From positions 86,177-141,461 of the forward strand of contig PFBI01000006.1 of assembly GCA_002773395.1 (NCBI GenBank): a DNA stretch of 55,285 nt, written 5' to 3'. The notes under the pieces are model-generated. The model was given only the letters and a program-made list of their open reading frames with translations, was not told the DNA's origin and did not search any database. Positions 863 to 50,622 of the stretch are shown here, one piece after another (position 1 is the stretch's first letter; every line of letters begins with the position of its first letter). The stretch is from Candidatus Kaiserbacteria bacterium CG10_big_fil_rev_8_21_14_0_10_47_16 (lineage in GTDB: Bacteria; Patescibacteriota; Minisyncoccia; Phycocordibacterales; UBA918). Position numbers and translations under genes: made by a program.

Positions 863-2150
863 ATAGTGATCTCCACATCGGACTTTGTCGCACCAAGAGT
901 TCTTTTGCCTGCTCTGGCTCAAGCATAATTTCTTCCACTACGCGTTCTGCACGGATACTTTGCGAACCTTTCACGAGAATCACATCTCCTGCTTTAATCA
1001 TATTTTGCAATTCTTCACCCGCTTGTCCTGCATCGTCGTACTGCAAGATCCCAATTTCACTCATACCGTTTTCGAGTGCACCTTTCGCGATACCGCGCGC
1101 TCGCACACCAATAGTGAGGAGGAGGTCAGTCGACTTGGCTGCGAGCGCGCCAATACGTTCATGTTCTGCAATTGAATACTGTCCGAGTTCGAGCATATCT
1201 CCCAAAACGGCAATTCGGCGGCCAATCCCCTTCAGCTCCTTGAGTGTCTGCAGTGAACGCTCTACTGCAACCGGTGAGGAGTTATACGTATCATCAATGA
1301 TGATTGAGTCTTTAATACCTGCAATGAGGCGCATGCGGCCTGCAGGAGGCATGTGGTCGCGGAGTGCAACTGCCGCTTCATCAATACTGATGCCAAAGAC
1401 AGACCCGACGGCAGCGGCCGCTGAGTAATTGTAGACGTGCTGTACACCGAGAGACCCTGCGACGCGCATAAGCGCCGTCTCATTTCCATGCGTCAAAATA
1501 AATTCAAACCCAATGGCGCGGCCGTTCTCGTACACAATCTTGTCCGCCGAACCGGTAAACGGTGAGAGCGAGTAACGACTGTATCCAATACTATTTTGAC
1601 GCAAACCTTCAGCTACCTCTACGACCTTCTGGTCGTCTTGATTATAAATAAGCACACCATCAACTTTGAGTGCATCCACCATCGTGAGCTTCTCAGCAAT
1701 GACCGCTTCAGGAGAATCAAAATATTCTACATGAACTGGAATCTCAGGGAGTCGTGTGAGCACAACAACGTCAGGCTGAATCCATGCAGCGAGCGCTGCC
1801 ATGTCGCCCGGCCGATCAACACCCATTTCGAGTACGAGTACGTGCGGATACTTTCCCGGAAAGAGCGCGATGATAAGTCCGTCAATAATATTCTTCAGCC
1901 ACTGAAATGGATTACTCCATGCGTTCTGAAGTCCGAGAACTGAAAGTGGAACACCAATTTCAGAGTTATAACTCTTTTCACTCTTGCGTGCGAATTCATG
2001 ATTCTTCAGCACTGCATATATCGCGTCTTTCACTGACGTCTTTCCAACACTCCCAATGACCGCAACAATTTTTGGTTTTGTGCGACGGAGGAGAATTTTT
2101 GCTTCAAAGGTGAGGATGGTGACGACAACTTTTTTCAAAATAGTTTTCAT
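861..2150 (-). CDS. murF: UDP-N-acetylmuramoyl-tripeptide--D-Ala-D-Ala ligase
   Basis: GSVGKTS P-loop, SYNSEIGVP, LEMG, DDTYNSSP, VLGDMLELG and VKGS motifs; start could be 2162. Confidence 0.9.
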   Translation of the reverse strand: MKTILKKVVVTILTFEAKILLRRTKPKIVAVIGSVGKTSVKDAIYAVLKNHEFARKSEKSYNSEIGVPLSVLGLQNAWSNPFQWLKNIIDGLIIALFPGKYPHVLVLEMGVDRPGDMAALAAWIQPDVVVLTRLPEIPVHVEYFDSPEAVIAEKLTMVDALKVDGVLIYNQDDQKVVEVAEGLRQNSIGYSRYSLSPFTGSADKIVYENGRAIGFEFILTHGNETALMRVAGSLGVQHVYNYSAAAAVGSVFGISIDEAAVALRDHMPPAGRMRLIAGIKDSIIIDDTYNSSPVAVERSLQTLKELKGIGRRIAVLGDMLELGQYSIAEHERIGALAAKSTDLLLTIGVRARGIAKGALENGMSEIGILQYDDAGQAGEELQNMIKAGDVILVKGSQSIRAERVVEEIMLEPEQAKELLVRQSPMWRSL

Positions 2151-2163
2151 GCGTGGATTCAAT

Positions 2164-3876
2164 TTATCGGTCTGGAGGGACGTCGTAGTAATTAAGCAAA
2201 AAGCGCATCAGTTCGCCATACGGTTCCGTTAGGGTCTCTGATGAGTACTGTACCCCCTGTGGTTCTACAGTATACAAGAAAATGAGGAATTGTGGGTCAT
2301 AGGCCGGAAAATAGCCAAAAAACGAGTGTAAATAGCGGTCAGCGTAGTAACCACCGCCATTTGGATTAGCAATCTGTGCAGTCCCCGTCTTTGAGGCAAA
2401 GCTGTAGTGTTCCATCGAGAGAGCACCGTGCGCGAGTGCCTTGTCGGCAACAGTGATAAGCATCGATGTCACCTGATCGGTTGTTGATGTTGAGAACACT
2501 TGCTCGCCGAGGGGGAATTGAACATTGTATGTCTTCCCTGACTCATATCGAATTTCTTTCACAATATGCGGCGTTACCAGTCTTCCGTCGTTCGCAAGCG
2601 TTGCAAGCGCGCGGACGGTCTCAATTGGTGTCATTGCAATTCCTTGTCCAAAGGAAGCAGTTGCATACTCGACGTCACGGGGAGAGTTGAGGTTTTCGAG
2701 ATCCCCATGAATTTCTCCCGGTAAATCAATGCCGGTCTCACTTCCGAGCTTGAGGCCAAGAAAATATTTCTTTAGTTTTTCCTTTCCCATCAAATTCACA
2801 ATATGCGCCACTCCCGTATTGAGTGATTGACTGAGAACCTCCTGCATTGGTACCGTACCGCGACCTCGTTTATCAAAGTTACAAATACGATACGTATTGA
2901 GTTCAATACATCCGGGGTCGTAGTACGTTGTTGATGGCGTTACCGTGTTTGTATCAATACCCGCCGCCATCGTGAGCGGCTTAATGATAGAACCCATTTC
3001 GTAGCGGGCTTCCACCAATGGATTATCAAACATTTCAAGAGAGACTCCTGAACGGTCGTTGAGGTTAAAGGTAGGAACGACGTTCATCGCGTAGATTTCT
3101 CCTGTCCGCGGATTCATAATGATGCCGCCCGTTACCTTACTCTTCCACTTATCTTCTGTCTTCTTCAAAACTTCATCGAGCATTTTGGAAACGTTTGGTT
3201 CGAGTGTAGTGATAATATCTCCCTCATCACTATGTGAGGAGTCAAAAACGAGATTATCAAAATCACTAAAGAGTTCTGCAAAGAAATTTACTGAGAGCTT
3301 ATCACTTCCGCGCGAGAGAACATCTTCGTATTGTCGCTCAAGTCCATAGAGACCGACAACATCGTTTCCTTTATATCCAACAAAGCCAACGGTGCGCGCA
3401 GCAAGGTTATCTTGCGGATAGCTTCGCCATTGACTGCGGTATAGCAATACCCCAGGGAGATCGAGTACATCGATAGCGTCCGCGTCGGTGTCTGATACTT
3501 GTGTATTAATTTCTTGATATGTACGCTTCTGATCGCTCGCTTTCTTTACAAAAGAATCATGATCAATGCTTGGCAAAATATCTACCAGAGCAGTATAAGT
3601 ACCTTCGGGGTCAGTGATACGCGTTGGATCGAGCGCGAGCACGTACCCTGGCTGGATAGCCGCCGCCCACGAGAGCTCACCATCCTTTGAAGTAAAATAG
3701 ATATCACCGCGACTATAAAGATCTTGCGCAGTATGAACATACTGACGTTCAGCTTGCGATTTATAGTTTTCAGAATGAATAACTTGCACGTAGTAGAGAC
3801 GCACAATAAGCAGTACTGCCAAAAAGACAACGACGCCTGTAATGATTCGGATGCGGAAAATAGCGGTCTTCTTCAT
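2164..3876 (-). CDS. ftsI: Class B penicillin-binding protein (FtsI/PBP3-like)
   Basis: N-terminal TM helix; SIIK, SLN and KTG transpeptidase motifs; follows mraZ-rsmH-ftsL. Confidence 0.85.
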   Translation of the reverse strand: MKKTAIFRIRIITGVVVFLAVLLIVRLYYVQVIHSENYKSQAERQYVHTAQDLYSRGDIYFTSKDGELSWAAAIQPGYVLALDPTRITDPEGTYTALVDILPSIDHDSFVKKASDQKRTYQEINTQVSDTDADAIDVLDLPGVLLYRSQWRSYPQDNLAARTVGFVGYKGNDVVGLYGLERQYEDVLSRGSDKLSVNFFAELFSDFDNLVFDSSHSDEGDIITTLEPNVSKMLDEVLKKTEDKWKSKVTGGIIMNPRTGEIYAMNVVPTFNLNDRSGVSLEMFDNPLVEARYEMGSIIKPLTMAAGIDTNTVTPSTTYYDPGCIELNTYRICNFDKRGRGTVPMQEVLSQSLNTGVAHIVNLMGKEKLKKYFLGLKLGSETGIDLPGEIHGDLENLNSPRDVEYATASFGQGIAMTPIETVRALATLANDGRLVTPHIVKEIRYESGKTYNVQFPLGEQVFSTSTTDQVTSMLITVADKALAHGALSMEHYSFASKTGTAQIANPNGGGYYADRYLHSFFGYFPAYDPQFLIFLYTVEPQGVQYSSETLTEPYGELMRFLLNYYDVPPDR

Positions 3877-3909
3877 TACCAAAAACTATAGCATTCTTTT
3901 TATAAAGGG

Positions 3910-4230
3910 TTATTGACCACGTGAATACGCCAGTGACGCATCAGTACGATCAATAAAAATCTTATTCGTCGCCACCACATACCCCCCTTCTTGTGCCAAC
4001 GCTGGATTTACTCCGTGTTGCAAACGCGCGTACTCTGATTCGAGCTGCCCCACATATGAGCTGGTTGAAACAATATCTCGTTCAACTTCTTTCCGCATCA
4101 CCACTTCGAACACAGAATTTGCAAGAAAATATACATACAGAGCAAAGAGCGCAACGAGTATTGAAAGGAGTGTAAAGAACCATACTTGCTGGTCTTTGTA
4201 GAGCGCTACTTTGCTGTGTGTTCGTGTCAT
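3910..4230 (-). CDS. FtsL-like bitopic cell division protein
   Basis: Single TM helix plus coiled coil; lies between rsmH and the PBP gene. Confidence 0.6.
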   Translation of the reverse strand: MTRTHSKVALYKDQQVWFFTLLSILVALFALYVYFLANSVFEVVMRKEVERDIVSTSSYVGQLESEYARLQHGVNPALAQEGGYVVATNKIFIDRTDASLAYSRGQ

Positions 4231-4234
4231 AAGC

Positions 4235-5137
4235 CTAATTTTTTTGAATGATGCGTAGTTTGGCGCTTCGTGCTCGAGGATTCTCTGCTAATTCCTCTTT
4301 CGATGCGGTAACTGGTTTTTTAGTAATGATGGTCATGCCGTGTTCTGCGGCGAGTGTTCGAAACGTGTGCTTGACGATGCGATCTTCGATACTGTGAAAA
4401 GTGATGATCGCAAGTCTTCCGTTCGGAGAGAGGTGCTGTACCGCTACTTGAATGAACTCTTCAAGGCTTGCGAGTTCGTCATTGACGGCGATGCGAAGTG
4501 CTTGGAAACTGCGAGTCGCAGGGTGTGTCTTCCCTGTTCGGTAGAACCCAGGAACCGCTGATGAAATAATTTCCACAAGCTGTCCTGAGGTCTCGATAGG
4601 TGCTGATTCTCGTTCTTCGACAATCTTGCGAGCGATTCGCTTCGCGAATCGCTCCTCACCGTATCCTTTGAGCACATTTGCGATTGATTCTTCGCTCCAC
4701 TCATTGATGATGTCTTTTGCAGTGAACGGGTAGGAATCCTCATCTGTTGGATTCCCGAAGGTCATAGTGAGCGGTTCGTCGTGTTGGAAAGAAAATCCTT
4801 TCCCTCCACCTGCGAACTGCTCCATACGCCATCCAAGGTCTGCGAGGACGCCATCAACGTGTGGTACGTCGAGCTTGGTAAGTACTGAATCGAGCGTTCT
4901 GAAGTTTGCGGTAATGAGATGCACTGTTGCATCTCCCTTAAGCTCTCCTTCAAGCGCTTCGATTGCAGACTCGTCAGCGTCGAGTGCAATAAGCATGCCG
5001 TCTGAATTGAGTTGTGAGAGTATGTCGCGCGCGTGGCCACCTGCTCCGAGTGTTGCATCAACGATGATTGCCTCAGGTCGAAGCGACAGTCCTTCGACTG
5101 CCTCCTTCTTCAGGACGGTTACATGCGTTGTTGTCAT
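4235..5137 (-). CDS. rsmH: 16S rRNA m4C1402 methyltransferase
   Basis: DATLGAGGH, HPATRSFQALRIAVNDEL, FHSIEDR and NPRARSAKLR motifs. Confidence 0.97.
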   Translation of the reverse strand: MTTTHVTVLKKEAVEGLSLRPEAIIVDATLGAGGHARDILSQLNSDGMLIALDADESAIEALEGELKGDATVHLITANFRTLDSVLTKLDVPHVDGVLADLGWRMEQFAGGGKGFSFQHDEPLTMTFGNPTDEDSYPFTAKDIINEWSEESIANVLKGYGEERFAKRIARKIVEERESAPIETSGQLVEIISSAVPGFYRTGKTHPATRSFQALRIAVNDELASLEEFIQVAVQHLSPNGRLAIITFHSIEDRIVKHTFRTLAAEHGMTIITKKPVTASKEELAENPRARSAKLRIIQKN

Positions 5138-5157: not shown

Positions 5158-5592
5158 TTAGAGGACTCCTATTTCTCCAAGTTTTTCAGCGAGCGCATCA
5201 GCTTGCTTTTCAATCTTGCGTTTGTAGTCAGTCCACTTCTTTTCATCCCAAATTTCTACACGGTCATGGATACCTGCAAACACCACTTTTGATGTCAGTG
5301 ATGCAAATTCCTTTAAGAAATCTGGAACGAGAATGCGTCCCACACTATCAACCTCCACCTCAACCGCTCCAGAGAGAAAGAATCGGTTGAATCCTCGAGT
5401 GTCCGCTTGTCCGAATGGGAGCTGGCCGATTTTATCGGAAATGCGATTCCATTCTTTCTGCGGATAGACAAAGAGACAGTTGTCGAGCCCTCGCGTCACA
5501 ATCAACTTTTTACCAAGCTCCGTTCTCCACTTACTTGGAAGTGAAAGACGTTTCTTTGCATCAATGCTGTGTGTGTATTCGCCGATGAGCAT
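5158..5592 (-). CDS. mraZ: Division/cell wall cluster transcriptional repressor MraZ
   Basis: GEYTHSIDAKKRL and DSVGRILVP repeats; EIW motif; first gene of the dcw cluster. Confidence 0.96.
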   Translation of the reverse strand: MLIGEYTHSIDAKKRLSLPSKWRTELGKKLIVTRGLDNCLFVYPQKEWNRISDKIGQLPFGQADTRGFNRFFLSGAVEVEVDSVGRILVPDFLKEFASLTSKVVFAGIHDRVEIWDEKKWTDYKRKIEKQADALAEKLGEIGVL

Positions 5593-5816: not shown

Positions 5817-7403
5817 TTAAGCTTTTAAGGTCAGACGTTTGATAACAAAGTCTTTATCGAGAGTACTGAGGAACCATCCTATTTTCGGACCACTTTCCTT
5901 TCCAAGAAATACTGCATAAATGGCGGCATAAAAATCCCCTGCTGAAAGTCCCGATAGTCCTTCTTTTATTTCATGTGAAAGTTTATGAAGCGATTCTCCA
6001 GTGAACTCATCTGCTAATTCTATTCTTGTCGCAAATTGTGCGAGTGCTTGTTTTTGTTCATTAGTGAGAGTTGCTGCATGTGGTGGCAATGTTTCCTGCA
6101 GCACGAAAATGAATTTCTCATCAGCATACGTCTCAAGCCAACGCTTTGCATAAGTAACACGGAGGTCAACTTCTGTACGATCCTCATCAGTCAGTGGTGA
6201 ACCTTTCATTTTCTCCACCTCCTCAAAAACATCCATGTGCGGCATTTGTACAAAGAACGCGATTTGTGAAAATCGTGGGAGGAAGCGTTTATGAATATGC
6301 GATCGTTCTGCTGGAGTGTGTACGAATTGAAAGAGTACCGAATCATCATCCTCCACTCCACTCCACGTCTTTTCTGCAAGACGATCATACGTATCGAAGA
6401 GAACAGGGATAGCATCCCCATCTGGATCAAAGTCTATCTGACGATTGATTGGGGTCTTGAGGAGCAGTAACCGCAGTATGTGTGTTGGAAGAAGCTCTGC
6501 AAGCTCTACTGCCGTTGCGGCATTTCCTTTTGATGAAGACATCTTCTTACCGCCAATAAGGAAGAACTCATTGAACACTCCGTACGGTGGTTCAAACATA
6601 AAAACTTCACGTGAAATCGCTTCTGCAACCTGCCGTGCACCACCTTTTGAGTAATGATCTTTACCGCCACCTTCAAAGTGAACACCGAGCACAACGAACT
6701 TTGCTGCCCACTCTACTTTCCACGGAAGTTTTCCGTTCCCATCAAATGGCGATATCCGTCCACTATGCCCACACCCCTCCGCCCACGAAATCGTATCTGA
6801 CGAACAAGTGTACGCAACTGTCTCACCATCAAAATCAGTTACTTTTGTAGAACTAAGCTTCCCGCAGTTTTCGCACACTACGTTCAGTGGATGCCAATCT
6901 TCTGGCCGCTCACTTTTAGACACCTCTGCATAAATACGTCGAATATCATTTCGCTTTTCCAGTGTAGTGCGTATCAAGTCATTCATCTTCCCTGACAGGT
7001 ACAACTCACTTGCGCGATATACCTGCGCACCAAATCCTAACTGTTCAAGTACTCGTACATATTCTTGTCCATAGAGTTCTGCAAAATTATCAAACCCTGG
7101 TTCTGGCGATGGAATCTTATACAGCTGCATTCCCATGTACTTTGTATACTCTGCTTCATCAAGATACGACGGGATCCCGTCCATCGGATCGAAGTCATTA
7201 ATTTCAAAATGAAACGTAACAGGGACACCTTCCGACGCGAGGACGTCAGCAACAATTGCATGGAGTGAGGCACTTCGAAGAGAGCCGACATGTACCCGTC
7301 CTGACGCTGTTTTTTCATCGCGAACAATGATTGACTCCCCCTTCTTAATACGTGCGTCATATTTGCGCACGACATCATTTGCAATTTTTTCTGCCCAAAA
7401 CAT
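5817..7403 (-). CDS. lysS: Lysine--tRNA ligase, class I
   Basis: TASGRVHVG (HIGH), CENCG, KLPWKVEW, GGKDH, KMSSSKG and SGPKIG motifs. Confidence 0.93.
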   Translation of the reverse strand: MFWAEKIANDVVRKYDARIKKGESIIVRDEKTASGRVHVGSLRSASLHAIVADVLASEGVPVTFHFEINDFDPMDGIPSYLDEAEYTKYMGMQLYKIPSPEPGFDNFAELYGQEYVRVLEQLGFGAQVYRASELYLSGKMNDLIRTTLEKRNDIRRIYAEVSKSERPEDWHPLNVVCENCGKLSSTKVTDFDGETVAYTCSSDTISWAEGCGHSGRISPFDGNGKLPWKVEWAAKFVVLGVHFEGGGKDHYSKGGARQVAEAISREVFMFEPPYGVFNEFFLIGGKKMSSSKGNAATAVELAELLPTHILRLLLLKTPINRQIDFDPDGDAIPVLFDTYDRLAEKTWSGVEDDDSVLFQFVHTPAERSHIHKRFLPRFSQIAFFVQMPHMDVFEEVEKMKGSPLTDEDRTEVDLRVTYAKRWLETYADEKFIFVLQETLPPHAATLTNEQKQALAQFATRIELADEFTGESLHKLSHEIKEGLSGLSAGDFYAAIYAVFLGKESGPKIGWFLSTLDKDFVIKRLTLKA

Positions 7404-25195: not shown

Positions 25196-25585
25196 ATGAA
25201 GAGCGACGACGAATTAAAGAATGAAAATCCTGAGCTCTACCGTGTCGCGCGTGAAAGCGGCACCGAAGCGCCATTTAAAGGTAAATACGTAGACGAGAAA
25301 GCTGACGGCATGTACCACTGCGCCGTGTGCAACGCTTCCCTCTTTTCTTCTGATACTAAGTTTGAAAGCAACTCTGGCTGGCCATCATTTACTGATCCTG
25401 CAAATCGCGAAGCGGTCACACTTCACGAAGATACAAGCGGTGGCATGAGTCGTGTAGAAGTACGCTGCAAAAACTGCGGTGCGCACCTAGGTCACGTCTT
25501 TTCTGATGGACCTGAGAAAGATGGTAAGACGTGCGATCGTTTCTGTATTAACAGCGTCTCGCTCGAACTAAAACCAAAAGTGTAA
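25196..25585 (+). CDS. msrB: Peptide-methionine (R)-S-oxide reductase
   Basis: GTEAPF, CAVC, SGWPSF, HLGHVF.DGP and RFCINS motifs. Confidence 0.96.
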   Translation: MKSDDELKNENPELYRVARESGTEAPFKGKYVDEKADGMYHCAVCNASLFSSDTKFESNSGWPSFTDPANREAVTLHEDTSGGMSRVEVRCKNCGAHLGHVFSDGPEKDGKTCDRFCINSVSLELKPKV

Positions 25586-25587
25586 CT

Positions 25588-25668
25588 ATGACAAAAAAGG
25601 CATACATAGCAGGGGGATGTTTCTGGGGTGAGAAGCGAACACTTGGAGCTTCGCAAGACCTTGCCTGA
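25588..25668 (+). pseudogene. Duplicated msrA 5' fragment ([14 protein letters not shown] plus unrelated tail)
   Basis: First 42 nt match 25752-25793 at 37/42, mostly synonymous differences; stop at 25666-25668. Confidence 0.85.
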
Positions 25669-25751
25669 TATTTTAGAAGGCGGAAGCCGAACTAAAATAT
25701 CGACAAGGTGTACAGCTCCTGTAGGGAGTAAGGGATAATAATATTTTCACT

Positions 25752-26243
25752 ATGATAAAAAAGGCATATATAGCGGGAGGATGTTTCTGGGGGTTGGAAG
25801 ACCTCATCCGTGACCTCCCCGGAGTCACCGCAACCGAAGCTGGGTACACCGGTGGAACAAATGAGAACCCGACGTACGAGAACCATCCTGGGCACGCAGA
25901 AGCGCTCGAGGTTGCATACGATTCTGAAAAGACATCGTACAAACAGATTCTTGATTTCTTCTTTCAAATTCATAATCCCACCACACTCAACCAGCAAGGG
26001 AATGATGTTGGTACTTCGTATCGATCAGCAATCTTTTTCCAAGATGAGGCAGAGAAAAAGATTGCTGAAGAAATGATTGAGATTGTAAATGAGTCTGGCC
26101 GGTGGCAGGACCCTGTTGTGACAACCTTGGAGCCATTTACTCGCTTCTGGCCCGCAGAAGACTACCATCAGGATTATTTACAAAAGAATCCTGATGGATA
26201 CACCTGTCACTCAATCTATTTCGATAGCTACCTGAAAGAGTAA
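25752..26243 (+). CDS. msrA: Peptide-methionine (S)-S-oxide reductase
   Basis: GGCFWG, GYTGG, GHAE, QGND.GT.YRS and AEDYHQDYL motifs. Confidence 0.96.
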
Positions 26244-47086: not shown

Positions 47087-47173
47087 GGAGGGTTCGCATA
47101 GTGGTCTAGTGCGCCGCCTTGGAAAGGCGGTAAGGGAGCAATCCCTTCGAGGGTTCAAATCCCTCACCCTCCG
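47087..47173 (+). tRNA. tRNA-Ser(GGA)
   Basis: GGAGGGT/ACCCTCC acceptor; CCGCC-TTGGAAA-GGCGG anticodon arm; long variable arm. Confidence 0.93.
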
Positions 47174-47186
47174 CAAAAATATAATT

Positions 47187-47218
47187 AAGAAAACCCCGTC
47201 TGGTGTGACGGGGCTTCT
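47187..47218. terminator. Terminator between tRNA-Ser and a convergent small ORF
   Basis: AAGAAAA-CCCCGTC-TGGTGT-GACGGGG-CTTCT. Confidence 0.75.
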
Positions 47219-47243
47219 CCTAAATGCGCGGCGGCAAGAACTG

Positions 47244-47384
47244 TTATTCTGGCGGACCCCAACCGGAGCCTTTGAAGGGGTTGTCGTCGGCCGACGACTT
47301 GGGGGACTTCCCTATCACGATCTTGGCTGCAATGGCGACAACCACCACAGCCGCAATGATCGCGCCGATAATGAGCGGGTCCAT
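47244..47384 (-). CDS. Small single-TM protein (46 aa, MDPLIIGAIIAAVVVVAIAAK...), absent from the ORF track
   Basis: AAAGGAG SD, GTGACA-N17-TACTCT promoter, terminator downstream. Confidence 0.7.
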   Translation of the reverse strand: MDPLIIGAIIAAVVVVAIAAKIVIGKSPKSSADDNPFKGSGWGPPE

Positions 47385-47432
47385 GGTTTTTCTCCTTTCC
47401 ACGGCTGTTCAACAGCCCCTAGAGTACCACCA

Positions 47433-47486
47433 CTACACATCCATGTCACGCAGGATGCGGATGCGGTCTTGAGCAGGTGGATGCGT
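47433..47486 (-). pseudogene. Displaced copy of the htpX 3' end (THPPAQDRIRILRDMDV*)
   Basis: 47440-47486 matches 48854-48900 at 41/47 with a 23-bp identical core. Confidence 0.88.
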
Positions 47487-47490
47487 CTTT

Positions 47491-48828
47491 TTAAACTTCC
47501 TTTGTTGCCTCCTTTTTTAAACTAAATAGAGAAAGTAACTTTGAACTCTTCTCTTTTCTTGGCTGAATATCGTATAGTCTGTAATCCGCTGAACTGCCAA
47601 CAAACTCATGTGCAACTATGGACACATCATATTTTTTCGTGAGTTTGTCCAAATGTGTTAATGAGTTTTTGTCTTTATTTGAGAACCCGAGATATATCCT
47701 TCCCTGCGGTTTTAAGTATTCTTCAACATTTTCAAAGAAACGATCTAGTACATTGAACCCATCAGTCGAAACACTGTTCATGAGCCGTGTATGGTTATCT
47801 TTAATTTTTTCTTGGTGGAATGGCGGGTGAAAAAATATTACATTGGCTTTTTCCTGACCTACCGCTGTGAATACCGATCCTTCTCGCACATCAACATTTT
47901 TGAGTTTAAATCGTGCAACATTTTCTTTAGTGTTTGCAACTGCGGCAGGGTTGATATCTACGCTAATGACTTTCTTTGCTCCATTCAAAGCACCTAGAAT
48001 TCCAAGATTCCCCGGACCGCAGCCGATATCAAAAATGACCTTATCTTTACAAAGATCTTTTGTAATATGTTTTGCAAACGTCAGGGAGCTTCTGAAGCGA
48101 TTGGGCGGGTACACGTCGGGGTACACAACCCATTCACGATCTGCATAGAGAATATTAAACTTTTCATCGTACTGCTTCATATTTTCATAAATACCCTCCG
48201 AGCTAAGTGCCGGGTAATAGCTTTTATTGATATATCCAACCTCGTCGTACTCAGCGGTTATCTTATCGAGCATACTCAGTGCTTCTTCTGCGTCTTTTGC
48301 ATAGTAGATATGCTCAGGGAGTTTGTCCCAGTACAATCCTTCTTCTTTCACTCGATTGCATAGATCTTTATACAGCTCCGCCATAGGCGAAACAATAATG
48401 ACCGGTCGATTTTCTTTACCCAAAAATTGATTGATATGTACATCGAGGACTTCATGTAGTGTCCCAAGGCCCCCTGCCAAAGCAATAAAAACATCCGCCA
48501 AATCAGTTAAGCGGCGAATGCGCAGATTGTATGAACTGAAGCCTTCCCAGTTTGAAAACCAAGGATATATCTCTGCTTCATAGTCCTTCAGTCCAACCCC
48601 ATAGACTTCTCCCCCAGCCTCATAGGCGACCCTTCCTGTCACACCCATTAGACCTGCCTTAGAAGCTCCGTTTACAAGCACAAAGTCTCTTTGTGCGATT
48701 CCTTTTGCGATCGATGTTGCATCTCTTAAGTATTTCTCGTTCTCAGTATCATTACCTGAACACATGAGTGTCACATGATATTTAAATCCGAGTTTCTTTT
48801 TTTCTTCTACACTAATCATTGTATGCAC
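47491..48828 (-). CDS. LOG/SLOG-family domain fused to a class I SAM methyltransferase (HemK/MTS-like)
   Basis: N-terminus: GLMG, GGEVYGV, FIALAGGLGTLHE. C-terminus: DIGCGPG, VDINPAA, FHPPF. Confidence 0.85.
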   Translation of the reverse strand: MHTMISVEEKKKLGFKYHVTLMCSGNDTENEKYLRDATSIAKGIAQRDFVLVNGASKAGLMGVTGRVAYEAGGEVYGVGLKDYEAEIYPWFSNWEGFSSYNLRIRRLTDLADVFIALAGGLGTLHEVLDVHINQFLGKENRPVIIVSPMAELYKDLCNRVKEEGLYWDKLPEHIYYAKDAEEALSMLDKITAEYDEVGYINKSYYPALSSEGIYENMKQYDEKFNILYADREWVVYPDVYPPNRFRSSLTFAKHITKDLCKDKVIFDIGCGPGNLGILGALNGAKKVISVDINPAAVANTKENVARFKLKNVDVREGSVFTAVGQEKANVIFFHPPFHQEKIKDNHTRLMNSVSTDGFNVLDRFFENVEEYLKPQGRIYLGFSNKDKNSLTHLDKLTKKYDVSIVAHEFVGSSADYRLYDIQPRKEKSSKLLSLFSLKKEATKEV

Positions 48829-48849
48829 AATTATATCTACTCATGCAGA

Positions 48850-49743
48850 TTACTCCATCCCTCGCAGGATGCGGATGCGGTCTTGTGCGGGTGGGTGCGT
48901 TTGGAAAAGGCCGGAAATCTTCTGCCCAATTCCCTTTTTATCTTTTCCAAATGGGTCTGCGATGAAGAGGTGCGCGGTTGCGTTGTTGGCACGCTTCATG
49001 GGACGTGCATATGCAGAAATCTTTTCAAGTGCTGAAGCAAGCCCTTCTGGGTATCGCGTTAAGAGTGCACCTGACGCATCCGCAAGGTACTCGCGCTTTC
49101 GTGAAATTGCGAGTTTGATGAGCTGCGCCGCAATCGGTGCGAGTACAATACCGACGATACCAATAATAAGAAAAACGGGGTTACGGTCGCGATTGTCGCC
49201 ACCGCCGAACATGGTCATACGTAAAAAGATATCGGCGACAATCGCGACAAACCCTGCGAGTACGACCGCAACTGTTGAAACAAGCATATCTCGGTTTCCC
49301 ACGTGTGAGAGTTCGTGAGCAATCACTCCTTCAAGCTCACTCCGGTCAAGAATCTGGAGAATACCACTCGTCACCGCAACAACAGCATGTTCTGGGTCTC
49401 GTCCTGTTGCAAAAGCGTTTGGTGCAGGGTCTTCTACGATATATACCTTCGGCATCGGAAGGCCGGCGGTAATCGCGAGATTCTCAACAACATTCCAAAG
49501 CTCACGATGCGTATCACGATCAATCGGCTTTGCACCGGTCATCTTCACCACAATCGTGTCCGAAAACCAGTAGCTTGTGACGTTCATGATAATCGCAAAC
49601 GCAACTGCGATATAGAGAATGAACGGATTTCCGATATACCACGCGATAAAGTACCCAATCGCAATAACGATAATAAGAAAGACCGTCATGAGAAGCCATG
49701 TCTTCCGAATATTTGCACCTTGTTGTGTATAGAGTGTTGCCAT
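48850..49743 (-). CDS. htpX: Zinc metalloprotease HtpX (M48)
   Basis: PNAFATG, HELSH, SRKREYLAD and THP motifs. Confidence 0.96.
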   Translation of the reverse strand: MATLYTQQGANIRKTWLLMTVFLIIVIAIGYFIAWYIGNPFILYIAVAFAIIMNVTSYWFSDTIVVKMTGAKPIDRDTHRELWNVVENLAITAGLPMPKVYIVEDPAPNAFATGRDPEHAVVAVTSGILQILDRSELEGVIAHELSHVGNRDMLVSTVAVVLAGFVAIVADIFLRMTMFGGGDNRDRNPVFLIIGIVGIVLAPIAAQLIKLAISRKREYLADASGALLTRYPEGLASALEKISAYARPMKRANNATAHLFIADPFGKDKKGIGQKISGLFQTHPPAQDRIRILRGME

Positions 49744-49745
49744 AC

Positions 49746-50057
49746 TTATTCAACTCCTTCTAAAAAAATCTTTTTGGTAAATCCTCCTCGCGCTTCGCGC
49801 TTCTGCTCTGCAGACTCTATAACGTCACGTTCAGTAATCTCGTACGCATTATAGAGTGCGTGAAGTACTTCGTGAACATCAGCTAATTCAGCAACAAGCT
49901 CATCCTTCTCTTGCGCCGTCGTTACTTCAGTCGCTTCTTCGACTAGCTTATCTTTGAGGGCGCGACGAAACTCATCATCGGTTAACTCTCGTACAATTGG
50001 TCGTTCTCCGTTTCCTTCAATAATCTCGGGAATGCGGTCACGTACCAATTTTTTCAT
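49746..50057 (-). CDS. All-alpha NTP pyrophosphohydrolase (MazG/PRA-PH-like)
   Basis: KLVRDRIP, KLVEE..E, ELADV.EV and KR..RGGF motifs. Confidence 0.88.
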   Translation of the reverse strand: MKKLVRDRIPEIIEGNGERPIVRELTDDEFRRALKDKLVEEATEVTTAQEKDELVAELADVHEVLHALYNAYEITERDVIESAEQKREARGGFTKKIFLEGVE

Positions 50058-50061
50058 AGTG

Positions 50062-50622
50062 CTAGAAGCTTACTGCAACTGGTTCACGAGCTGCTTGTTC
50101 ATCTTCTGCAAGCTCGAAGTATTCGTTCGCTTGGAAGCCAAATGCTTTCCCAACCATGTTTCCAGGGAATGATTGCAAGCCAATCGTGAGGTCTCGTACG
50201 TTTGTATTGTAGAAACGTCGCGCTGCCTGAATTTTGTTTTCAGTATCAGCAAGTTCACGTTGGAGCTCAAGGAAGTTCTGGTTTGCTTTAAGGTCTGGAT
50301 AGTTTTCTGATACTGCAAAAAGCGTCTTGAGGGCGCCGGTTAGCATATTGTCTGCATCAGCCTTTGCTTGTGGACCTTCTGCGTTCATAGCGCGGGTGCG
50401 CATTTCTGTTACTTTGGCAAACGTTTCTTGTTCATGTGCCGCGTATCCCTTCACTGTTTCTACGAGGTTTGGAATAAGGTCAAAACGACGCTTCATTTGA
50501 ACATCAATGTCTGCAAGCGCTTCTTTCGTACGCTGGATAAGACGAACGAAATTATTGTAGGCATACATAACCCACAGTGCGATAACAACAACGATAGCGA
50601 TAATAATATAAAGAGTGCTCAT
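50062..50622 (-). CDS. lemA: LemA family protein
   Basis: RRFDLIPNLV, ENYPDLKA, ENKI..ARRFYN and FP motifs. Confidence 0.96.
   Translation of the reverse strand: MSTLYIIIAIVVVIALWVMYAYNNFVRLIQRTKEALADIDVQMKRRFDLIPNLVETVKGYAAHEQETFAKVTEMRTRAMNAEGPQAKADADNMLTGALKTLFAVSENYPDLKANQNFLELQRELADTENKIQAARRFYNTNVRDLTIGLQSFPGNMVGKAFGFQANEYFELAEDEQAAREPVAVSF

Follow-up and report, generated by a model that had tools for sequence, protein, structure and literature searches.

A foreign LOG–methyltransferase gene between two htpX tails in a Candidatus Kaiserbacteria genome

The htpX locus and its two gene ends

We analysed a 55,285-nt stretch of the genome of the ultra-small groundwater bacterium Candidatus Kaiserbacteria bacterium CG10_big_fil_rev_8_21_14_0_10_47_16 (contig PFBI01000006.1, positions 86,177 to 141,461 of the forward strand), here called the window, in which a single foreign gene, the cargo, lies at the 3' end of htpX, the gene of an M48 protease. 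The features of the locus are collected in Table 1 in window coordinates. On the minus strand, lemA, a small MazG-like gene and an intact htpX, whose product ends in ...THPPAQDRIRILRGME*, are followed by the cargo and then by a second version of the last htpX codons, the orphan tail, which lacks a start codon and does not share the reading frame of the cargo. The insert between the two tails comprises 1367 nt and a single open reading frame (ORF). The cargo starts 21 nt (GTG) or 30 nt (ATG) past the htpX stop and ends 4 nt ahead of the orphan tail, in agreement with an earlier note on this DNA, made from the sequence alone, which had taken the arrangement for an att-type cassette. Of 41 relatives examined, 36 yielded htpX itself, with an identity of 82% in the closest GTDB relative.

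The two tails form a direct repeat of 47 nt (copies A and B), in which 41 positions (87%) are identical, with a spacing of 1414 nt and an identical core of 23 nt; the same figures had been given in the earlier note. Local alignment of the flanks yielded a score of 32, compared with a mean of 9.2 (standard deviation 1.1, maximum 13) over 100 shuffles, and the homology ends sharply at both repeat edges, where the flank score falls to 10, a value reached by 122 of 300 shuffles. Self-BLAST and a DNA search of the genome detected two copies only, the repeat being otherwise unique. A longer, decayed duplication (cargo C-terminal …KLLSLFS… versus HtpX …KISGLFQ…) was also considered and rejected, as the 200 nt of upstream DNA score 10, a value that 122 of 300 shuffles reached. 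A C-terminal extension like that of the cargo is also present in cargo homologues away from htpX.

The junctions were then compared with Logan contigs of four sequencing runs (X1–X4). Contigs of X1 (47107-49900) and X2 (47107-49339) cross both junctions with zero differences, as do two records of X3 (47377-48310 and 48642-49050), a run not flagged as a source of the assembly, while X4 crosses the htpX/cargo junction (48781-48945). Because independent contigs of three runs thus cross both junctions, the arrangement is not a chimeric assembly, and the merging of two strains, for which no supporting point was found, has a negligible probability; the check for a strain chimera that the earlier note had proposed thereby came out in favour of the locus. 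No contig of the four runs joins 47440 to 48854 as an empty site or as a circle, although contigs drop rare forms, and the proposed circular junction is accordingly left with no support rather than refuted.

The nature of the differences between the tails is informative. Five of the six fall at third codon positions and one at a second position, and the four within THPPAQDRIRILR are all synonymous, as had been pointed out before. If a duplicate had been born identical and then drifted, changes would be expected at all codon positions. When the rplE case described below was added, ten of 11 differences were at third positions, which gives P = 1.3e-4 under equal positions and P of about 4e-3 if one copy was free and the other constrained, the share of 0.48 used for the latter being a rough estimate. 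Since the differences fall mostly at third positions, both htpX tails look like alleles from two lineages, each having evolved as a working gene end. Furthermore, copy A shares 41 of 47 positions with copy B and 40 of 47 with the tail in L007, the locus of a relative that belongs to a different genus. Since the latter is nearly as close to copy A, the 23-nt identical block can be plain conservation and does not require a crossover site.

We also asked which of the two tails is the original one. The HtpX proteins of relatives mostly end in ...RGMD[V/I] or ...RDMDV, the latter ending being found in several database relatives. When the orphan tail and its downstream flank were searched against 165 genomes of the family, the best match was the native htpX end of the genome G448, which reads RDMDV* and agrees with the orphan's flank for about 16 nt beyond the stop. 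This identifies the orphan as a genuine htpX end of the type seen in the family. The order in G448 is lemA-mazG-htpX(RDMDV*), about 115 nt and then tRNA-Ser, with no cargo. Together with G435, it provides empty-site comparators (lemA-mazG-htpX, 115-500 nt, tRNA-Ser(gga), no cargo), both of which belong to other genera rather than to the same species; relatives with empty sites, as anticipated earlier, therefore do occur. The agreement with G448, in the tail as well as in the 3' flank, suggests that the orphan is what was originally the end of htpX, displaced but still joined to its native flank, and the RGME* end of the working gene is best read as having arrived with, or having been made by, the insertion. 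The flank of L011 (G018) was rejected as a further match to the orphan's flank, since it scored 7, whereas background values among the flanks of 35 relatives went up to 8 (of the 36 loci searched, L026, with a post-stop flank of <30 nt, was dropped).

Table 1. Annotated features around the htpX 3' end (window coordinates)
Feature	Position	Strand	Remarks	Evidence
lemA	50062..50622	-	opens the conserved lemA-(mazG-like)-htpX run	Pfam LemA 1.1e-58; same order in relatives
MazG/PRA-PH-like small gene	49746..50057	-		Pfam PRA-PH 8.8e-06; likewise between lemA and htpX in G448 and G435
htpX (M48 protease), intact, 297 aa	48850..49743	-	end ...RILRGME*	Pfam Peptidase_M48 3.3e-34
Repeat copy A	48854..48900	-	last 16 codons of the working htpX (THPPAQDRIRILRGM + GA)	
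Spacer from htpX stop to cargo ATG, 30 nt	48820..48849	-	contains a perfect TATAAT at 48835..48830	
Cargo gene	47491..48819	-	442 aa from ATG 48819; 445 aa from GTG 48828	
Orphan htpX tail THPPAQDRIRILRDMDV*	47433..47486	-	includes repeat copy B, 47440-47486	
3' flank of the orphan	47417..47432	-	common to the native htpX 3' flank of relative G448	BLAST match runs 14 nt beyond the stop
Small GC-rich ORF, 46-52 aa, one predicted membrane helix	47244..47402	-	gene status uncertain	ORF list
Hairpin + T-run	47190..47217	.	terminator-like on the minus strand; placed to close the lemA-htpX-cargo run; just past the tRNA on the plus strand	
tRNA-Ser(gga)	47087..47174	+	conserved downstream neighbour of htpX in relatives; here convergent with htpX	

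The inserted gene and its product

The cargo is AT-richer than its surroundings, as the earlier note had it, with a GC content of 0.406 compared with a genome mean of 0.470, which places it among the lowest 1.5% of 2199 equally long windows. It occurs in one of the 165 family genomes, namely that of the window itself, and the other 400 genomes searched in the order, including the unpublished G271, yielded no full-length homologue, only single-domain matches of at most 35% identity. A large protein collection, on the other hand, contains about 40 full-length fusions that are 67-80% identical to the cargo. Homologues were found in metagenome-assembled genomes (MAGs) of Saccharibacteria (71%), Nanoarchaeales (70%) and Woesearchaeota (56%) and on unnamed metagenome contigs, the identities of the whole set ranging from 56 to 80%. 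The presence in a single family genome, the low GC content and the homologues in Saccharibacteria and DPANN archaea establish that the cargo gene is foreign to its host. Since its homologues lie in both Saccharibacteria and DPANN MAGs, the gene has also crossed between bacteria of the Candidate Phyla Radiation (CPR) and DPANN archaea.

Two homologues bear on how the gene might travel. One of them (P0002, 80%) lies on a Logan contig of 1,446 nt, close to one insert period (1414 nt) plus about 31 nt; we conjecture that, in a graph of k=31, this length reflects a segment bounded by copies of a longer exact repeat, or a circle. On another metagenome contig of 3,996 nt (L073), a replication-initiator-like gene (2068-3207; REP_ORF2-G2P, 8.9e-13) was observed 1.2 kb from the cargo homologue, and this contig may, from its gene content, represent a small replicon that ferries the cargo gene between hosts. 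Its reading as a closed plasmid circle with the cargo found no support, the N-terminal part of the cargo being absent from the other end of the locus.

The cargo protein combines a LOG-like (SLOG) domain at residues ~16-185 with an MTS-type S-adenosylmethionine-dependent methyltransferase domain at residues ~250-405. The Pfam matches Lysine_decarbox (1.5e-11), LDcluster4 (4.2e-11) and MTS (3.7e-16) score 45.0, 43.1 and 59.7 bits, all above the gathering cut-offs. A profile of 24 homologues searched against the PDB retrieved LOG phosphoribohydrolases (3e-19) and, for the second half, MJ0882, METTL5, PRMT and HemK-type enzymes. The AlphaFold (AF2) model has a predicted local distance difference test score (pLDDT) of 87 and was matched by Foldseek to the type-I LOG structure 5zbl, which contains AMP, with a TMt of 0.88. 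Among the 24 homologues, the (H/N)PPF motif and the glycine-rich motifs of the LOG domain, which we take to be catalytic, are invariant or nearly so. The database form of the protein (P0001) has 442 aa and starts at the ATG, while the ORF list begins at GTG 48828.

The cargo is thus predicted, from its sequence and model, to be a LOG-like phosphoribohydrolase fused to an amino-methyltransferase. It is likely to act as a nucleotide- or base-directed enzyme that would remove or bind a nucleotide and methylate an exocyclic amine. By Pfam, PDB profile and fold, it resembles both the LOG/TIGR00730 phosphoribohydrolases and the MTS amino-methyltransferases, but the fusion of the two domains sets it apart, and no solved or named relative with the LOG + MTS combination was found in the libraries searched. 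No nuclease gene is present in the insert, and the methyltransferase domain matches MTS/RsmC-like families and PADLOC mad2 (5e-24).

With regard to expression, no terminator-like site was found between htpX and the cargo, nor between the cargo and the hairpin at 47217..47190. Because no terminator parts htpX from the cargo, the latter is likely read through from the lemA-htpX transcript, as the earlier note had proposed. The same note held that the cargo has no room for a promoter of its own, which is doubtful in view of the perfect TATAAT in the spacer, 10 nt ahead of the cargo ATG. Similarly placed -10-like boxes precede the cargo homologues in L068 and L071. A scan for consensus promoters, which needs both a -35 and a -10 element, listed no pair in the htpX-cargo spacer. 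The cargo may therefore also possess its own -10 box as part of a putative promoter.

Downstream of the orphan, the small ORF at 47244..47402 has a GC content of 0.589 and a GC content at third codon positions (GC3) of 0.72, compared with a genome GC of 0.47, and has no match among 30 relatives' loci. This ORF could represent a further foreign piece, or else not be a gene.

Cargo homologues at other loci and recombinases in the genome

Cargo homologues were then investigated at 13 loci (L052-L054 and L068-L077), of which four are cut on the 5' side of the cargo and one lacks the 3' flank. Among the eight with both flanks visible, flanking direct repeats were detected in three (L071, L053 and L068). 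In L071, a metagenome contig of 45,980 nt, the ribosomal operon is interrupted between rplE and rpsN by the cargo homologue (77%), together with a HicA-type toxin gene and the small ORF that precedes the latter. The final 11 rplE codons and the stop recur 2130 nt downstream (2844-2885 and 4974-5015) with 36 of 42 positions identical, and all five in-codon differences are synonymous third-position changes. This rplE case, with its synonymous differences, points to recombination via conserved gene tails rather than to a cut-and-fill process, as far as the sequences allow this to be judged. A 101-nt hairpin-rich repeat (99%) was also observed at this locus, behind the cargo homologue (4349-4449) and behind the next gene of 111 aa (5345-5445). 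Its copies alternate with those of the rplE-tail repeat, an arrangement suggestive of insertions stacked at a single site.

In L053, a Nanoarchaeales MAG, the cargo homologue is bracketed by a 166-nt repeat (77%; 3808-3973 versus 5352-5517), which extends over the promoter region of the downstream gene as well as its first codons and adds an N-terminal extension to the cargo. This pair is nested in a 1.09-kb repeat (81%; 2732-3822 versus 6089-7180) of an Lrp/AsnC-type regulator gene. In L068 the gene is bracketed by an 84-nt repeat (95%). In L070 (2913-3001), a homologue of 71% identity begins 14 nt past the 3' end of tRNA-Val(gac), and no duplicated tRNA end was found within the locus.

The genome from which the window derives contains a second one-gene cassette outside the window (L099; G000:C6:249208-250253), consisting of a DUF218 gene about 450 nt behind smpB. 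The cassette is bracketed by the two copies of a direct repeat, 43 nt long and perfect, which contains a terminator hairpin and has a spacing of 1003; the start of this repeat resembles a transfer-messenger RNA (tmRNA) 3' end by inspection, no tmRNA search having been made. Within the window, another direct repeat of 44 nt (91%, spacing 164 nt) was observed at 25585-25792 (G000:C6:111761-111968).

The earlier note had further claimed that htpX, through its conserved THP motif, is a specific target. None of the 13 cargo loci is at htpX or has a THPP-type tail. A motif scan found a second htpX tail within 1.5 kb in none of 29 relatives' loci, and a later scan found exactly one htpX tail in each of 36 relatives' loci. 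The htpX-specific att cassette was thus not borne out. In contrast, the statement that no recombinase or transposase is nearby held true, also when it was extended to the whole genome. This contains one Xer-like tyrosine recombinase, ~220 kb from the locus, and one IS110-like gene ~195 kb off with a broken fragment, and searches for a serine recombinase, rve, DDE_Tnp_1 and TnpB were negative genome-wide. Likewise, no integrase or transposase was present among the 31 ORFs that neighbour the cargo homologues.

The IS110-like gene (L100; G000:C6:329921-331464, outside the window) encodes 366 aa and lies between two identical 87-nt repeats, the second of which abuts an N run, possibly as an effect of the assembly. 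Its Transposase_20 domain scores above the cut-off and its DEDD domain below. We set this gene aside as a possible mobiliser of the cargo in view of its distance, its DEDD domain under the cut-off and the lack of any sequence in common with the htpX repeat.

Origin of the insertion

The best explanation for the locus, to which we assign a probability of roughly 0.55, is an acquired one-gene cassette that was spliced into the htpX tail by host recombination acting on imported DNA, with no dedicated integrase. In this scheme, the horizontally acquired LOG-methyltransferase cassette would enter at the last 16 codons of htpX, where the imported DNA would pair with the resident, conserved htpX tail as a homologous anchor and bring a slightly different htpX end (RGME*). 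Closure could be achieved by an illegitimate join at the far end, in which homology-facilitated illegitimate recombination (HFIR) leads to a 'C-terminal displacement', or through one crossover with a fragment that had become circular and bore the tail copy of a previous host. The resident RDMDV* end, together with its native 3' flank, would be shifted 1.4 kb downstream and become an untranslated orphan. Host recombination on imported DNA is most likely the maker of this structure, as judged from the sequences. The htpX tail is the sole homology beside the foreign DNA, the old 3' end and a native-type flank are kept downstream, and the host encodes ComEC, DprA and RecA. The earlier note had left two options, mobilisation in trans and capture by homology during DNA uptake; capture by homology fits better than an att cassette. 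Its claim of a replacement htpX end holds insofar as one foreign gene separates a working end from an orphan, and fits less well in its att-type form.

The outcome matches a pattern known as 'insertion with long target duplication', which was reportedly treated by Nobusato et al. 2000. According to Furuta, Abe and Kobayashi 2010 (PMC2853133), such insertions have repeats of >30 bp and no mobility genes, the repeats often take in the beginning or end of the target gene, which thereby remains intact, and align to a single copy in empty-site genomes, and the insert is under 20 kb. The same authors describe a bias to naturally competent species, a mechanism that was left unresolved, and a screen that required restriction and modification genes, with orphan M and mcrA cases also given. 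The present locus is similar to what is described there, in that a short foreign segment of anomalous GC content and under 20 kb, without a mobility gene or mobile element, lies in a host with DNA-uptake genes, and in that direct repeats of >30 bp, unique in the genome and single-copy in empty-site genomes, span the stop codon region and leave the target whole. It differs from these described cases in its cargo, which is a LOG-methyltransferase fusion and not a restriction-modification system, in its CPR host, in its empty sites, which come from other genera and not from the same species, and in its repeat copies (41/47), which are allele-like and more diverged than most of the published pairs.

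A second parallel is the HFIR model for orphaned 3' regions in type VI secretion system (T6SS), rhs and contact-dependent inhibition (CDI) loci, as set out by Kirchberger et al. 2017 (PMC5361080). There, too, an anchor in a conserved upstream gene, a new 3' end with a downstream gene and an orphaned old end are described, and no site-specific recombinase is needed. Jackson et al. 2009 is also said to be linked to displaced C-termini and orphaned 3' regions. In the present case, however, the displaced part is limited to 16 codons, the gene affected is that of a housekeeping protease, the function of its end is unchanged, and the toxin-immunity logic of the systems described there does not apply.

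Several observations weigh against recombination of imported DNA at the htpX tail. Five of the eight cargo loci with both flanks visible (L052, L054, L069, L070 and L076) have no flanking repeat, the codon-position test is based on 11 sites at two loci, and RecA acts poorly on a 47-nt match of 87% in which the identical run is 23 nt long. The ComEC, DprA and RecA families also match in non-competent control genomes. Neither a donor with htpX beside the cargo and no orphan was found, nor is microhomology readable without such a donor. In addition, the closest HtpX proteins, P0050 (87-88%) and P0053 (81%), end in GME* too, and no listed cargo homologue lies on the longest contigs that carry them (41,410 nt and 637,345 nt, respectively), so that GME* could be native in this clade, which complicates the polarity. 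When P0053, with its KGME* end, was sought in the 165 family genomes, the best match was 87% (G009), and alignment of the present HtpX with P0050 showed no mosaic pattern by eye, and thus no sign of a crossover point. A native GME* would be expected if the orphan itself were foreign, the cargo having come with a tail fragment from an RDMDV* lineage, perhaps along with the small GC-rich ORF, whose odd GC3 of 0.72 would fit. This is very improbable, as it requires a donor in which the cargo already stood ahead of an htpX tail, and since the native htpX flank in G448 agrees with that of the orphan, with the htpX-tRNA-Ser synteny continuing downstream.

Two other mechanisms need to be weighed against host recombination on imported DNA. 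Integrative elements that enter the 3' ends of tRNA or protein genes and supply a replacement end are known, as in the case of phage 21 and e14 at icd. The cassette could be an integrative element, or the remnant of one, with an attP that mimics the htpX 3' end, and could have been moved by a tyrosine recombinase, either the Xer-like enzyme in trans or one since deleted, with the 23-nt core as the crossover. The locus does have the attL/attR form, since a duplicated end with synonymous, allele-like differences restores the target and the identical core lies between diverged arms; one Xer-like recombinase is present in the genome, and the L070 homologue starts just past a tRNA gene, a classic type of target. 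However, no integrase is found in or near the insert or near any cargo homologue, and the insert, a single 1.3-kb gene plus 34 nt, has no space for arm sites. The htpX site was not reused in any of the 13 cargo loci or the 36 relatives' loci of the genomes searched, the targets and repeat lengths vary by locus (47, 42, 84 and 166 nt), the core is not palindromic on inspection, and L070 lacks a duplicated tRNA end. An identical block between alleles also needs no crossover, most of it being shared with the L007 tail. Site-specific integration is thus unlikely.

A true target duplication, in which a 47-nt staggered break was filled in around the incoming DNA and the initially identical copies diverged later, appears more unlikely still. 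The sharp edges of the repeat with no homology beyond them, the repeat lengths that differ among loci as in the published cases, and the perfect 43-nt repeat of the second one-gene cassette in this genome would all suit such a process. Nevertheless, a free orphan should drift everywhere, whereas the differences are concentrated at third positions in htpX and, with L071 added, in the pooled set (P of about 4e-3), and a divergence of 13% would imply an old event, yet the cargo is present in no other family genome.

Host recombination on imported DNA thus remains the explanation that we favour, and it leads to a broader and more tentative view. Conserved gene tails, i.e. the last 40-50 nt of htpX, rplE and perhaps tRNA genes, might act as portable homology arms in the ultra-small genomes of CPR bacteria and DPANN archaea, a possibility that we regard as rather doubtful at present. 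A one-gene cassette would then carry the gene tail of its previous host, pair with the resident tail, donate a working end and orphan the old one. If true, this would amount to a recombinase-free, homology-guided cassette system, and it would explain the synonymous-only tail differences at two unrelated genes with the same cargo family.

A full-text literature search that joined 'long target duplication' and 'Patescibacteria' found no paper. The present case extends a known but unexplained mode of insertion to CPR bacteria and to cargo other than restriction-modification genes, and adds an allele-like signature at two genes. The cargo, a LOG-methyltransferase fusion, is an uncharacterised enzyme of which Kaiserbacteria-like bacteria, Saccharibacteria and Nanoarchaeales share a conserved form. 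Although recognisable mobile elements are scarce in the tiny genomes of CPR bacteria and DPANN archaea, genes are shared across the domains. The htpX locus, a clean and read-supported case, illustrates how such a genome can acquire one gene without an integrase, namely at the 3' end of a conserved gene that is left intact, and the 25-year-old question of how long target duplications originate becomes testable through a census of orphan gene tails.

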